Positions 4,859 to 8,523 of a stretch of DNA of 64,000 nucleotides are shown here, piece by piece (position 1 is the first letter of the stretch; each line of letters starts with the position of its first letter). The DNA is from Candidatus Micrarchaeota archaeon (lineage in GTDB: Archaea > Micrarchaeota > Micrarchaeia > Micrarchaeales > Micrarchaeaceae), in assembly GCA_027345565.1 (NCBI GenBank), contig DAHWIF010000008.1, positions 1 through 64,000 on the forward strand, given 5' to 3'. The notes below the pieces were generated by a model. That model was not told the DNA's origin. It was given only the letters and a program-made list of their open reading frames with translations, and ran no database searches. A program made the translations under genes and the position numbers.

Positions 4859-5757
4859 ACAATTGGCTTTAAAAGCGGCCATTCCAGCCATCGACTCCAG
4901 TCGATGCTGCTGGAGGGCACTGCTATCAGATTTCGACAGCCATGCAAGTCGTCCCTTGCACCTGCAGGGGAGGCGTACGGCTCAGTAACACGTAATCAAC
5001 CTACCGCGGAGAGGCGGACAAAGTCGGGAAACTGACTGTAATACGCCGTAGGCTACGGCACCTGGAAGGAGCTGTAGCCGATAAGGTTGCGAATTGGAGC
5101 ATTACCGCTCCGCGATGGGATTGCGGCGGATCAGGCAGATGGCGGGGTAACGGCCCACCATACCGATAACCCGTAGGGGATGTGAGAGCATGAGCCCCGA
5201 GAAGGGCACTGAGACAAGGGCCCTAGCACTACGGTGTGCAGCAGGCGCGAAAACTCCACAATGCGCGGAAGCGTGATGGGGGGAATCTGAGTGGTCCACT
5301 TCGGTGGACCTTTTGCCAAGTATAGCAAGCTTGGCGAATAAGTGCTGGGCAAGACGGGTGGCAGCCGCCACGGTAATACCCGCAGCACAAGTGGTGTCCA
5401 CGATTATTGGGCTTAAAGCGCTCGTAGCTGGCCTGTGCCGTCTCATGTGAAATATTGGCGCTCAACGTCAATGCGGGCATGAGATACCCATAGGCTAGGG
5501 AGCGGGTGAGGTCAGGGGTACTCACGGGGGAGGGGTAAAATCCTGTAATCCTGTGAGGACCAACGGTGGCGAAGGCGCCTGACCAGAACGCATCCGACAG
5601 TGAGGAGCGAAGGCTAGGAGAACGAATCGGATCAGATACCCGAGTAGCCCTAGCAGTAAATTATGCAGACTCTGGTGTTGCAGGTGTCTTGAACGCCTGC
5701 AGTACCGTAGCGAAAGTGTTAAGTCTGCCGCCTGGGGAGTACGGCCGCAAGGTTGAA

Positions 5758-5784
5758 TTCGTGTGCCGTTCTACACGACAACAG
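5758..5784 (+). other. 27-nt ORF-less BHB intron in 16S after E. coli position 908
   Basis: Insert between GGTTGAA and ACTTAAAG; GTTG/CAAC helix, bulges AA^T and AG^A, inner hairpin TCGTGT/ACACGA. Confidence 0.9.
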
Positions 5785-6074
5785 ACTTAAAGCAATTGGC
5801 GGGGGAGCACACAAGGGGTGGATGCTGCGGTTTAATTGAATTCAACGTCGGAAATATTACCGGGAGCGACGGCAGTGTGAAGGCCAGACTAAAGATCTTG
5901 CCTGACGAGCCGAGAGGTAGTGCATGGCGACCGTCAGCTCGTGGTGTGAACTGTCCGGTTAAGTCCGGGAACGAGCGAGACCGCCATTGACAGTTGCCAC
6001 CGTCCCAGTGATGAGACGAGCACTCTGTCGAGACCGCCTCTGTTTAAAGAGGAGGAAGGAGGCGGCGACGATAC

Positions 6075-6919
6075 ACGGTGCTGAGAGACCATCAGACGTA
6101 ATCCACCAGGTCAGTAAGGTATTTATTAACTAGGTTAGTATAATACACACTATGCCAACAACAGAACTGACAGATAACGAGATAGCTAGATTGTTCAATG
6201 AAGTTGAAAAGAGGACAGCCAACTTCACAAACGTGCAACCGGAAATGCTAGTGGATAATCCAAAGTATGTACTGGTATTTAGGCTTGCGGCGAACATGTC
6301 TCAAAACCAGTTCGAGAGGTTCTTAGGCAGCAATTCAAAAAATACCAGCAAGTACGAATTAGGCAAAATAAAGAATATGCAAATTTCGACTGCTGAGCGG
6401 CTTGTACAGAAGATAAAGCCGTATTTGAAGCCTGCAAACAAAGAGCAGGTGATAAAGAGGTATGGATTGTCTAGAGCGGAATCAAACGGATGGTTTAAGG
6501 CTAACAGATACAGTAGCACTGCGCTTTTAGCACAGAGGAAAGGTGCAGCAGCGAGCCTGAGACTAAGAAGAACAAATCAAGAATCCGAAATAGAGAGGTA
6601 TCTCTCTAGAAAGAAGCAGGAATTCTTCATAAACTATCCGCTGAAGGAGAACATAATAGTGGATGTGTATATACCAAAGAAGAAATTGGCCATCGAATGC
6701 AAAGAGATAACATCAAGCTCTAGGAAGGAGCTGAAAGAGCAGATAAAGTTTCTCGCATTGCAGGGTTTTAAGATCAGGTACAATTTCAAAGATCTTACGC
6801 TTTGGGCATTAGTTAAAACTAACCAAAGGATAAAGGAAAATGACATTCAAGAGCTTCAAGCTTTTGACAAAATACTTTACGACCTGGATGAATTACGTCG
6901 GTCTTTCTCATCGATCGAA
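6075..6919 (+). mobile_element. 845-nt ORF-containing BHB intron in 16S at about E. coli 1197/1198
   Basis: CGAT/ATCG helix, bulges AC^A and AA^G, long inner stem 6076-6112 with 6881-6913; ligation restores helix 34. Confidence 0.9.
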
Positions 6920-6934
6920 GTCAGTATGCTCTGA
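6152..6934 (+). CDS. intron-encoded XRE-like HTH + PD-(D/E)xK (Vsr/DUF559-like) putative homing endonuclease
   Basis: FRLAANMSQNQFERFLG..KNTSKYELG HTH; RTNQESEI...IVDVYIPKKKLAIECK nuclease motif; AT-rich relative to neighbours. Confidence 0.75.
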   Translation: MPTTELTDNEIARLFNEVEKRTANFTNVQPEMLVDNPKYVLVFRLAANMSQNQFERFLGSNSKNTSKYELGKIKNMQISTAERLVQKIKPYLKPANKEQVIKRYGLSRAESNGWFKANRYSSTALLAQRKGAAASLRLRRTNQESEIERYLSRKKQEFFINYPLKENIIVDVYIPKKKLAIECKEITSSSRKELKEQIKFLALQGFKIRYNFKDLTLWALVKTNQRIKENDIQELQAFDKILYDLDELRRSFSSIEVSML

Positions 6935-7294
6935 ATCTTCCGGGCTACACGCGGCATACAATGGTCGGCACAATGGGATGCAACTCCGAAAGGAGGAGCC
7001 AATCCCCTAAAACCGACCTAAGTTTGGATTGAGGGCTGAAACTCGCCCTCATGAAAATGGAATCCCTAGTAATCGCATGTCACTATCGTGCGGTGAATCT
7101 GTCCCAGCTCCTTGCACACACCGCCTGCCACGTCACCCAAGTGAGGTCCTAGTGAGGCAGTATCTTCGGATACTTTCGAGTTAGGGCTTTGTGAGGAGGG
7201 CGAAGGCATAACAAGGTATCCGTAGGGGAACCTGCGGATAGATCACCTCGTAAAACTTTCTCTGAAAGTTTTATCAAAAGATGTGCAAAAGGAA

Positions 7295-7388: not shown

Positions 7389-7892
7389 GTGGCAGCTAAG
7401 CTGAAGCTATCGCCTGATATAAGCTACATGCTCGGCATATACAGCGCAAGCGATAGGAAGCTGCCTATGCGCCTTCATACTGCAAACAGCGAGATGCTTG
7501 AGCGCTTCATAAGGATAGCGGTTACGGACTTGGGCGTTGGGGCGAACAAGATAATGCTTGATGACGAAGGGGCATCGTTCTACAACTCGAGGCTGAAGAG
7601 GCTCTTCGACAGGGCTCTGGAGAGGAGGACGAAGACCTTCAAGTACCTGAACGATTATTCCGGAAGCTACCTTGCCGGCTTGTTCGACTGCATCGGCGGC
7701 TTCGACAGGAAGGGCATGTTCATAAGGAACCTGGAGGCGCACGACGCGCTCCTCATGGAGAACCTTGGCGTACACCTGAAGCACCAGGGCTCGAAGGCAT
7801 ACATAATGAATGAGAACGCCTTTGCGGGATTGATAAGCAAGCACAGCTCCACGCTTGGAAAAGTGAAGAGGCATGCCGGGAGAAAGCCATGA
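7389..7892 (+). CDS. degenerate double-motif LAGLIDADG-like protein
   Basis: SPDISYMLGIY and GSYLAGLFDCIGG motifs. Confidence 0.65.
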   Translation: MAAKLKLSPDISYMLGIYSASDRKLPMRLHTANSEMLERFIRIAVTDLGVGANKIMLDDEGASFYNSRLKRLFDRALERRTKTFKYLNDYSGSYLAGLFDCIGGFDRKGMFIRNLEAHDALLMENLGVHLKHQGSKAYIMNENAFAGLISKHSSTLGKVKRHAGRKP

Positions 7893-8523
7893 ATATATAA
7901 CGCCTGAGGAGATGCGGCTTGCGGAGAGGGACTCTTGGAAGAGGGGCATGACCGTTGAGCTGCTTATGGAGAACGCTGGGCGCGGGATAGCAAACGTGAT
8001 AGGAATAGATTTCGGGCCGCTGACAGGAGTTAAAATAGTGGTTGTGTGCGGCAGCGGCGACAACGGCGGCGACGGATTCGTAACAGCGAGGTACCTTGCC
8101 CAGGCAGGCGCGCGCGTCACCGTGATACTGCTCGTGAAGCCTGCGGAGATAAAGACGAACGAGGCCAAGGACAACTGGATCAGGCTCTCGAATGCGGAGC
8201 GGCTGATACTAGATAGCGCGGAGGAGCTCAAGAAGCACGGCAGCATCATGAATGACGCGGCTGTCGTAGTGGATGCCATATTCGGGACAGGCATCAGTGG
8301 AGCGATAAGGGAGCCAGCCGCAACTGCAATACGAATGATCAACGGGTCTCATGCGAAAAAGGTGTCTATCGACATACCGAGCGGTCTCGACCCAGGGACA
8401 GGTGAGGCGAAGGACCCAACGGTGATGGCGGACATGACCGCCACGCTGCACATGAAAAAGATAGGTCTTAAGGGCAACGGCAGGTACTCCGGCAGAATAG
8501 TAGTGATCCCGATAGGCATATAG
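7873..8523 (+). CDS. nnrE: NAD(P)HX epimerase (YjeF N-terminal domain)
   Basis: LMENAG, CGSGDNGGDG, VDAIFGTG, SIDIPSG. Confidence 0.92.
   Translation: MPGESHEYITPEEMRLAERDSWKRGMTVELLMENAGRGIANVIGIDFGPLTGVKIVVVCGSGDNGGDGFVTARYLAQAGARVTVILLVKPAEIKTNEAKDNWIRLSNAERLILDSAEELKKHGSIMNDAAVVVDAIFGTGISGAIREPAATAIRMINGSHAKKVSIDIPSGLDPGTGEAKDPTVMADMTATLHMKKIGLKGNGRYSGRIVVIPIGI

Follow-up and report, generated by a model that had tools for sequence, protein, structure and literature searches.

A candidate family of helix-turn-helix and PD-(D/E)xK-type homing endonucleases in bulge-helix-bulge introns of Micrarchaeota 16S rRNA genes

Introduction

The 16S ribosomal RNA (rRNA) gene of a Candidatus Micrarchaeota archaeon (assembly GCA_027345565.1, contig DAHWIF010000008.1; the 64,000 nucleotides (nt) from position 1 of the forward strand are referred to here as the window) exceeds by about 880 nt the 1478-position model that identifies it in an Rfam scan. 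What fills this extra length, how it would leave the rRNA and what is encoded by the open reading frame (ORF) inside it are the questions raised by the locus. The gene is split twice, at 5758..5784 and at 6075..6919, and the second, larger element is the subject of the present work. On comparative evidence, it is nearly certainly a bulge-helix-bulge (BHB) intron placed between the positions equivalent to 1197 and 1198 of the Escherichia coli 16S rRNA. The protein encoded within it very likely combines a helix-turn-helix (HTH) domain with a PD-(D/E)xK-type nuclease domain, and the family to which it belongs is probably a new, putative homing-endonuclease family of archaeal BHB introns.

Homing endonucleases of the LAGLIDADG type, such as I-DmoI, I-PorI and I-ApeI, are encoded in rRNA introns of Thermoproteales and Desulfurococcales. 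The archaeal 16S intron loci given by Jay and Inskeep are 374, 548, 722, 781, 803, 901, 907/908, 919, 978, 1093, 1205, 1213 and 1391, and the ORFs of the introns treated in that account encode LAGLIDADG enzymes (PMC4496867). The PD-(D/E)xK fold is one of six structural families of homing endonucleases in the classification of PMC3384342, and Vsr-like/EDxHD homing endonucleases are described from inteins and from group I introns of phages and bacteria (PMC2677866, PMC3239194). Regarding the Micrarchaeota, Nawrocki et al. report group I introns in the large subunit (LSU) rRNA and at position 1498 of the small subunit (SSU) rRNA (PMC6125680). In a cultivated member of the phylum, Sakai et al. report a 522-base pair (bp) insertion at 1093, whose hypothetical protein, reported there without an assigned function, is weakly similar to one encoded in the 16S gene of ARMAN-2 (PMC8784108). 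No published description of an intron at 1197, or of an HTH and PD-(D/E)xK protein in archaeal introns, was found in the full-text literature searched; subscription journals and supplementary tables (e.g. those of PMC4496867 and PMC6125680) lie outside that body and may list more sites.

A sequence-only reading of the window had proposed a BHB intron at 6075-6919, with an HTH and PD-(D/E)xK protein in the place usually taken by a LAGLIDADG enzyme. The coordinates of the features discussed below are collected in Table 1.

Table 1. Features of the 16S rRNA gene and its introns in the window (residue numbers refer to the 260-amino acid ORF).
Feature	Position	Strand	Description
Archaeal 16S rRNA gene (intron host)	4894..7251	+	Rfam RF01959 (SSU_rRNA_archaea), 1212.8 bits, model 1-1478
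Mini-intron, 27 nt	5758..5784	+	E. coli 908, known archaeal intron locus; complete BHB by hand
BHB intron, 845 nt	6075..6919	+	Between E. coli 16S 1197 and 1198, 3' strand of helix 34
BHB 5' half	6066..6081	+	Outer helix h CGA 6066-6068; central helix CGAU 6069-6072; bulge AC^A 6073-6075; inner helix h' CGGUGC 6076-6081
BHB 3' half	6908..6923	+	Inner helix h' UCAUCG 6908-6913; central helix AUCG 6914-6917; bulge AA^G 6918-6920; outer helix h UCA 6921-6923
Target-like motif copy 1, GGTCAGTA	6109..6116	+	5' of the TATA box; also part of the long closing stem
TATA-like box TTTATTA	6122..6128	+	24-30 nt before the ATG at 6152; candidate archaeal promoter in the intron
Target-like motif copy 2, GGTTAGTA	6133..6140	+	Between TATA box and ATG, where transcription start would fall
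Intron ORF, 260 amino acids	6152..6934	+	Stop TGA 6932-6934 and last 4 codons in exon 2
N-terminal HTH domain, residues ~30-91	6239..6424	+	Five helices; AlphaFold, Pfam HTH_3 in relatives
PD-(D/E)xK-like domain, residues ~139-259	6566..6928	+	Conserved residues, AlphaFold, structural neighbours
Codon of E144	6581-6583	+	Nuclease motif
Codon of D171	6662-6664	+	Nuclease motif
Codon of E182	6695-6697	+	Nuclease motif
Codon of K184	6701-6703	+	Nuclease motif

The insertion site

Direct reading of the sequence places the last base of exon 1 at C6074 and the first base of exon 2 at G6920, so that the limits proposed for the intron are exact. When the exons are joined in silico and aligned with the E. 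coli 16S rRNA, exon 1 ends at 1197 and exon 2 starts at 1198. The E. coli copy used is 1541 nt long; its landmarks 515, 907, 1052 and 1100 agree with the standard numbering and those at 1392 and 1492 fall one position behind it, which indicates a 1-nt gap of this copy between 1114 and 1391. The landmarks C1192, A1196 and G1198 fit unshifted and presumably place the gap after 1207; as the placement is taken from these three positions, the numbering 1197/1198 could be off by one.

Independent evidence for the junction comes from an intron-less allele. The same-genus genome G112 carries the sequence GGAGGCGGCGACGATAC^GTCAGTATGCTCTGAAT (the caret marks insertion points and cut sites throughout), letter-identical to the joined exons of the window. 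Its 16S gene is contiguous across 6074^6920, with 7 mismatches in 797 nt of exon 1 and 6 in 332 nt of exon 2. Different bases flank the point of insertion (5' side C^A, 3' side A^G), which leaves only one possible placement. The joined exons also agree with the Rfam consensus, ACGgcAG^GuCAG.

The junction had further been argued from the pairing of C1197 with the covariant G1060 in helix 34, and this argument is borne out. The 1060:1197 pair is kept without exception in 29 of 29 distinct 16S sequences, as C:G in 22 and as G:C in 7; the set comprises 15 genes with an interruption and 14 without. The intron-less allele and the covariation together confirm the junction of the BHB intron at 1197/1198. 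The claim that the site is not a catalogued one agrees with its absence from the 13 archaeal 16S loci given by PMC4496867, as far as that account lists them.

The BHB motif and the splicing machinery

The motif had been described as a CGAT/ATCG helix between the bulges AC^A and AA^G; this geometry can be read directly from the sequence and is kept in 18 of 18 distinct junctions. In these homologous contexts, the 4-bp central helix between the 3-nt bulges is paired in 72 of 72 cells. Compensatory variants include CGGU/ACCG, CGAU/AUCG, CGGC/GCCG and CGCU/AGCG, as well as G-U forms, with three pair types at two of the positions. In the inner helix h', 103 of 108 cells are paired and each position shows 2-7 base combinations; in the window this helix runs on (CGGUG/CAUCG) into a long closing stem, and the fold of the intron region is far more stable than that of shuffled sequences (z = -9.7). 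The outer, exon-exon helix h is weak: an A-U pair is found in 18/18 contexts, a G-C pair in 11/18 and a third pair in 1/18, which leaves two bp in the window. This comparison shows a genuine motif that is kept by selection, though its exon side is relaxed.

The window genome encodes the proteins expected to act on such a motif. Its EndA (L059:889-2046), a 386-amino acid (aa) enzyme of the three-unit type, matches the ARMAN-2 enzyme (PDB 4fz2) over the full length with E 2e-165, and the ligase RtcB is also encoded (E 2e-165, 548 bits). The epsilon2-type EndA cleaves non-canonical introns, according to PMC3239211 and PMC5829648.

Contigs of the mine-drainage metatranscriptome run X15 bridge the joint 6074->6920 with anchors of 18-27 nt, and the RNA runs X15 and X16 give no coverage over 6116-6895. 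The same joint is found in DNA contigs of the runs X1 and X2. Since the DNA runs share the joint and its sides are shorter than 30 nt, the RNA joint counts neither for nor against splicing or expression; intron-less relatives living in the same communities explain it equally well. Run X1 also contains a 917-nt contig identical to the window over 6033-6949, and the joined contigs beside it indicate that intron-bearing and intron-less alleles coexist there. A contig of X2 from a related strain (aligned with 6033..7232, 35 differences) carries the intron with 6121..6704 deleted, an ORF-less form of about 261 nt.

The intron-encoded protein

The ORF fills the intron and overlaps its 3' splice site. 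The ratio of nonsynonymous to synonymous substitution rates (dN/dS) is 0.13-0.22 in five homologue pairs, which indicates purifying selection, and 108 cluster representatives match the ORF at E<=0.001. An AlphaFold model calculated with a 45-sequence alignment reaches a mean predicted local distance difference test (pLDDT) of 92 and a predicted template modelling score (pTM) of 0.67. By these measures, the ORF is a real gene.

In the model, the N-terminal part contains helices at residues 30-35, 39-46, 51-58, 64-70 and 78-91, followed by two linker helices. Pfam searches of 45 full-length relatives return HTH_3 in 21 (E<=0.01), HTH_19 in 15, DUF559 in 6 (best E 2.9e-4) and DpnII-MboI in 2. HTH_3 exceeds the 23-bit cut-off in some of the relatives, e.g. 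in P0009 with 24.6 bits. The HTH of MBF1 (PDB 2mez) matches the family profile with E 0.056, and an NCBIfam scan gave weak HTH matches only. With HTH_3 in 21 of 45 relatives and a five-helix model, the XRE-type HTH of the sequence-only reading is likely for the family; the window protein itself remains below threshold. The prediction that the ORF is not of the LAGLIDADG type holds, since neither the window protein (at E<=10) nor any of the 45 members has a Pfam LAGLIDADG match. Some relatives are longer, with 400-675 aa (P0027, P0032, P0033, P0038 and others), and carry the N-terminal HTH in two to four tandem copies.

The C-terminal part is arranged as helix 142-153, strands 159-165, 168-174 and 179-186, helix 191-211, strand 216-223, helix 229-234, strand 240-242 and helix 245-259. 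In PD-(D/E)xK nucleases, a glutamate lies on the first helix, an aspartate on the second strand and the (D/E)xK pair on the third strand. The model has an alpha-beta-beta-beta-alpha-beta core and places E144 on alpha1, D171 on beta2 and both E182 and K184 on beta3, as expected for this fold. Among 22 intron-borne copies, whose identity to the window protein ranges from 20 to 54%, Q143, E144, D171 and K184 never vary; E182 is kept in 21 of the 22 and is glutamine in the other. The T..E, VD and ECK residues noticed earlier are thus present, but the spacing is D-x10-E-x-K rather than the x9 first counted.

The ESM-Atlas structural neighbours of two family members include PDDEXK_11, DUF559, SfsA, CoiA_nuc and a restriction endonuclease, at template modelling (TM) scores of 0.55-0.70 that serve as leads only. 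An hhalign comparison of the domain alignment with eight DUF559/Vsr proteins gives 65% probability and E 5.9e-5; the T..E helix and the aspartate are aligned and ECK stands opposite IFAD. Against one single DUF559 ORF, the probability is 17%. The PHROG family 'homing endonuclease' is matched weakly (E 3.3e-4), and a word-indexed profile search with the nuclease domain recovered family members only and no annotated nuclease. The suggested likeness to Vsr/DUF559 accordingly holds at the superfamily level, not as membership of DUF559. Our reading of the model and the conserved residues is that the C-terminal domain would be a PD-(D/E)xK-type nuclease, related to the DUF559/Vsr-like families and standing outside them.

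Distribution of the family and traces of mobility

A single-sequence scan of the genome contigs returned no relatives of the ORF, and a profile scan found them. Contigs of one genome per species yielded 5 loci and metagenome contigs another 7; in the sample of 401 genomes of the phylum, 15 genomes contained 16 strong places. The records are labelled Micrarchaeota/Micrarchaeia, 'Parvarchaeota' or uncultured archaeon, and one bin is labelled Gammaproteobacteria. The proteins themselves are named 'hypothetical protein' or 'XRE-family/helix-turn-helix transcriptional regulator'. The ORF lies inside a 16S gene in all 21 loci scanned with Rfam (11/11 and 10/10); the loci L025-L030 are additional to this set, and for L025-L028 the 16S context was read from flanking conserved sequence.

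The 1197 intron occurs in 20 loci, with lengths of 796-853 nt. The uninterrupted pattern of the site is found in 180 of the 401 sampled genomes, a count that takes in the two unpublished genomes G198 and G029, neither of which carries a claim by itself. The genus of the window includes three other genomes with the region assembled, and all three are without the 1197 intron. According to their flanks, 9 of the 15 genomes with strong ORF matches are of the 1197 type and 6 of a type inserted near 1362; several of the latter have an empty 1197 site.

Relatives of the family thus occupy at least three 16S intron sites, namely 1197, ~1362 and ~265. At six loci (L021, L022 and L025-L028, e.g. L025:1399-2271), more distant members are carried by a BHB intron of canonical form, inserted into the loop of helix 43 at E. 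coli ~1362/1363. Its outer helix is UCGCUUG/CGAGCGG, its central helix UCAC/GUGA and its bulges CA^A and AA^U. This site, too, lies outside the loci that the PMC4496867 account gives. The third site was found in the genome G312, whose second family copy is inserted in the 16S 5' domain, in the loop GGUAACG^GCUCACC at E. coli ~265; its protein has D...GCK in place of D...ECK. The 16S gene of G312 (L062, G312:C55:2500-6200; also L020) carries at least four insertions: the family member near 265 (ORF at about 1966-2820), ~690 nt in the 908 region, ~155 nt near the equivalent of window position 5858 and the 1197 intron.

Decay is seen as well. In G031, a fragment of the nuclease domain interrupted by TGA and TAA stops (L018 946..1140, corresponding to G031:C3:14803-14997) lies in a 371-nt insertion at the equivalent of 5823/5824, and the same 16S gene also has an intact 1197 intron. 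Presence and absence, decay and ORF loss among close relatives, together with new conserved targets, point to the life cycle of a homing endonuclease gene. From the sequence comparison, the ORF is embedded in the intron and appears dispensable for the host gene.

Motifs in the intron leader

The TATA-like TTTATTA reported upstream of the ORF is present. It belongs to a conserved leader layout that consists of GGTCMGTA, a TATA-like box, a second GGTCMGTA, ~12-19 nt and the ATG. A regular expression detects the box in 13 of 18 leaders of homologous introns; it missed the TTTATTA of the window, the identical box of L007, and L003 and L008, which have A/T-rich stretches by eye.

Within these introns, the 8-mers are confined to the leaders. 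The pattern G[GC]T[CT][ACT]GTA has 32 copies in 18 leaders (1123 nt) and is absent from the 13669 nt that make up the rest of these introns; two copies lie 21-25 nt apart in 14 of the 18. The leader 8-mer is identical to the empty target spanning the point of insertion (G^GTCNGTA). In 15 of 18 loci, one of the leader copies agrees with the target of its own locus in at least 8 of 10 positions, a level reached by 0-116 of 2000 shuffles. In the leaders of the 1362 class, a TATA-like box is followed by a palindrome, e.g. TCACCGG...CGGTGA in L027; the idea that these palindromes are mimics of exon 2 was dropped (0 of 6 at 8/9 or better).

The homing endonuclease I-TevI represses its own promoter through an operator that resembles its homing site (PMC2988022). 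Because the 8-mers that bracket the TATA box resemble the homing target, the HTH of the intron protein may likewise repress its own promoter. By this analogy, the leader motifs suggest operators for self-repression by the same HTH that would find the target.

Weighing of the explanations

The reading preferred here is that 6075..6919 is a mobile BHB intron in helix 34 of a Micrarchaeota-like (DPANN) 16S rRNA. In the precursor, the end of exon 1 would pair with the 3' end of the intron and form a 4-bp helix between two 3-nt bulges. The epsilon2 (ARMAN-2-type) EndA would cut at AC^A and AA^G, and RtcB would then join the exons and restore the C1197:G1060 pair. The intron's own TATA-type promoter would drive the synthesis of the 260-aa two-domain protein. 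Subsequently, its N-terminal XRE-like HTH would read the DNA, and its C-terminal nuclease, with E144, D171, E182 and K184, would cut it. The substrate would be the uninterrupted rRNA gene site (...ACGRYAS^GTCNGTATG...), and repair from an intron-bearing copy would insert the intron into the cut site. Through the two target-like 8-mers around the TATA box, the same HTH would repress its own promoter, as I-TevI does.

We infer that the intron is excised in vivo and, from the sequences, that its protein cleaves DNA site-specifically and supports homing. Active homing is likely on the same grounds. A bolder version is offered tentatively and with less conviction. It holds that these proteins are previously unrecognised homing endonucleases, the first of non-LAGLIDADG type in protein-spliced archaeal introns and with several DPANN 16S targets, and that a single HTH serves both target-finding and self-repression through two homing-site mimics, the strategy of I-TevI reinvented independently.

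Several observations weigh against this explanation. The window protein has no Pfam match above threshold, its HTH-type hits being weak (MqsA_antitoxin, E 0.098), and no match to DUF559 even at E<=10; the Pfam DUF559 model finds nothing anywhere in the window genome (G000). Sequence and profile searches of the PDB with the nuclease domain gave nothing significant, the best relevant entry being AF1548 (1y88) with E 1.1. Distant family members have GCK, ETT, AIL and similar residues instead of ExK, so that some copies may be inactive or differently arranged. The identity of the ORFs tracks that of the exons (r = 0.44, 153 pairs, no clear outlier), which indicates largely vertical transmission; the candidate scenario of recent transfer between lineages finds no support in the same comparison. 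Homing would moreover require the exchange of DNA between cells, because the window genome apparently has a single 16S gene. The outer helix of only 1-2 bp makes the BHB motif a relaxed one, reliant on a broad-specificity enzyme. Regarding the leader, an RNA stem joins motif copy 1 to the 3' end of the intron, compensatory changes are visible in the flanks, and the copy is also explained by this stem. Target mimicry was not detected in the leaders of the 1362 class (0 of 6 at 8/9 or better).

Some of these points are shared by the rival that survives best, although it is unlikely: the protein would be only a DNA-binding regulator that dwells in the intron, its nuclease-like domain would serve dimerisation or binding, and the intron would be inherited vertically without homing. 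The correlation of ORF and exon identities and the distant relatives without ExK residues fit this rival. It is also in keeping with the databases, which label members XRE or HTH transcriptional regulators, with the Pfam results, in which no family but HTH_3 passes its cut-off among the members examined, and with the operator-like repeats on both sides of the TATA box. Yet the invariance of E144, D171 and K184, with E182 in 21 of 22 copies at 20-54% identity, is hard to explain without catalysis. The restriction of the family to rRNA introns in the 21 Rfam-scanned loci, at three different sites, and the intron-less alleles of near-identical relatives also speak against a mere regulator.

An action on RNA, with the protein as a maturase-like helper or as an rRNA-processing nuclease for a relaxed BHB intron, is improbable. 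LAGLIDADG proteins of other introns can be maturases, a helper is conceivable for a motif with so weak an outer helix, and the ORF overlaps the 3' splice site. HTH_3 domains and PD-(D/E)xK cores, on the other hand, are typically directed to DNA. The ORF-deleted intron in the X2 DNA and the mini-intron of 27 nt, which has no ORF and lies in the same gene, imply that splicing requires no protein specific to the intron, and the genome has an EndA of the epsilon2 type, which cleaves non-canonical introns as far as PMC3239211 and PMC5829648 describe it.

Two further rivals carry very little weight. In the first, the element would be a selfish addiction or defence module, restriction- or toxin-like, that shelters in a spliced-out region and has no role in intron mobility. 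The structural neighbours do include restriction families (DpnII/BanI, AbaSI-like) and phage DUF559 proteins, and 2 of the 45 members weakly match DpnII-MboI, but the intron, which is filled by the ORF, contains neither a methyltransferase nor an antitoxin as a partner, and the strict tie to specific rRNA sites together with the target-like motifs points to site-specific homing. In the second, equally improbable, the insert would be excised without ligation, giving a fragmented 16S rRNA, or retained as an rRNA expansion, as the occurrence of the joined form of the RNA contigs in DNA contigs of the same communities might allow; the canonical 3-nt/4-bp/3-nt geometry with its compensatory changes, the cut sites that restore a conserved covarying pair of helix 34, the presence of RtcB and the poor tolerance to be expected for 845 nt in the neck of the decoding centre all speak for a spliced intron.

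Comparison with known systems

I-Ssp6803I, a homing endonuclease of the PD-(D/E)xK type, comes from a group I intron in a cyanobacterial tRNA gene. It is built on the restriction-enzyme core that the intron protein would share; the latter differs in having a separate N-terminal HTH and in residing in a protein-spliced archaeal intron rather than a group I intron. By sequence and structure, the nuclease domain comes nearest to proteins of the kind of DUF559 and the Vsr-like/EDxHD homing endonucleases (I-Bth0305I), with which the T..E helix and the beta2 aspartate align. The window protein differs from them in falling below the DUF559 cut-off and in its third element, an E-x-K opposite IFAD that is not of the D...(F)ADG..H type. 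As group I introns of bacteria and phages, and also inteins, are known to encode PD-(D/E)xK and Vsr-like/EDxHD homing endonucleases, the enzyme class is not new in kind. What appears new is the family, its domain design and its residence in archaeal introns that are spliced by proteins.

The archaeal LAGLIDADG rRNA introns described in PMC4496867 are alike in many respects: in that account they are bounded by a BHB motif, excised by the tRNA splicing endonuclease and several hundred nt long, with one endonuclease ORF, a sporadic occurrence in relatives and short ORF-less forms. They differ from the present intron, which has an HTH and PD-(D/E)xK-like ORF, the site 1197 and a DPANN host with an epsilon2 EndA. 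I-TevI of the T4 td intron is alike in its nuclease-linker-HTH design and in the homing-site-like sequence over the intron promoter, as far as PMC2988022 treats them. In I-TevI, a GIY-YIG nuclease forms the N-terminus, the intron is a phage group I intron and the promoter is of the bacterial type. In contrast, the intron protein has the reversed domain order and another nuclease type, and its leader has an archaeal TATA box with two direct-repeat sites; its repression would be by analogy. The hypothetical ORFs inside Micrarchaeota 16S genes (that of ARM-1 at 1093 and UNLARM2_0643 of ARMAN-2) belong to the same phylum, according to the description in PMC8784108. The ARM-1 insertion there differs in its 1093 site and its shorter length of 522 bp.

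The papers searched describe the endonucleases of archaeal BHB introns as LAGLIDADG enzymes. If the preferred reading is true, a second, unrelated enzyme family lives in these introns, and introns spliced by proteins take up mobility genes no less freely than group I introns. The reading would also give a function to ORFs that puzzled those who described Micrarchaeota 16S genes. The 845-nt insert at 1197/1198 and the others near 265, 908 and 1362 can distort surveys based on 16S as well as the assembly of rRNA genes from DPANN archaea. As a compact and possibly self-limiting nuclease, guided by an HTH to a long target in the rRNA gene, the protein would be a candidate scaffold for specificity studies, and target-mimic operators around an archaeal TATA box would offer a simple system for the study of archaeal transcription repression.

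Host gene, host genome and neighbouring features

The window genome amounts to 600 kb in 16 contigs, of which the window is contig 15, and is 84% complete, with an apparently single-copy 16S gene. The labels of the homologous loci and the match of its EndA to the ARMAN-2 enzyme are the grounds on which the host is treated as a Micrarchaeota-like DPANN archaeon. In the Rfam alignment, the gene shows a small insertion near model position 854 and a block of ~850 nt near 1109-1130. The mini-intron has its own BHB motif, with an outer helix AGG/CUU, a central helix GUUG/CAAC, the bulges AA^U and AG^A and a hairpin UCGUGU-GCCGUUCU-ACACGA. It is absent from the same-genus genomes G161 and G194 and from the locus L007, which read GGTTGAA^ACTTAAAG, and G112 retains it with one substitution.

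No LSU rRNA was matched by Rfam in the first 20 kb of the window. The 16S and 23S genes seem to be unlinked in the window genome and are adjacent in several relatives. The gene that follows the 16S region is YjeF_N by Pfam (7873..8523). Just 3' of the 16S gene lies an ORF of 167 aa (7389..7892, + strand), which has no Pfam match at E<=0.01 and contains YLAGLFDCIGGFD, a sequence that we take to resemble a LAGLIDADG motif; this ORF could be a free-standing or remnant endonuclease gene. Lastly, G246, a genome of the same family, encodes a 236-aa protein (L045:1141-1851) with a C-terminal domain of DUF559/Vsr type that exceeds the cut-off (30.1 bits). Its N-terminal basic repeats resemble DNA-binding motifs of the NUMOD3 type, and the protein may be another mobile endonuclease of these genomes.

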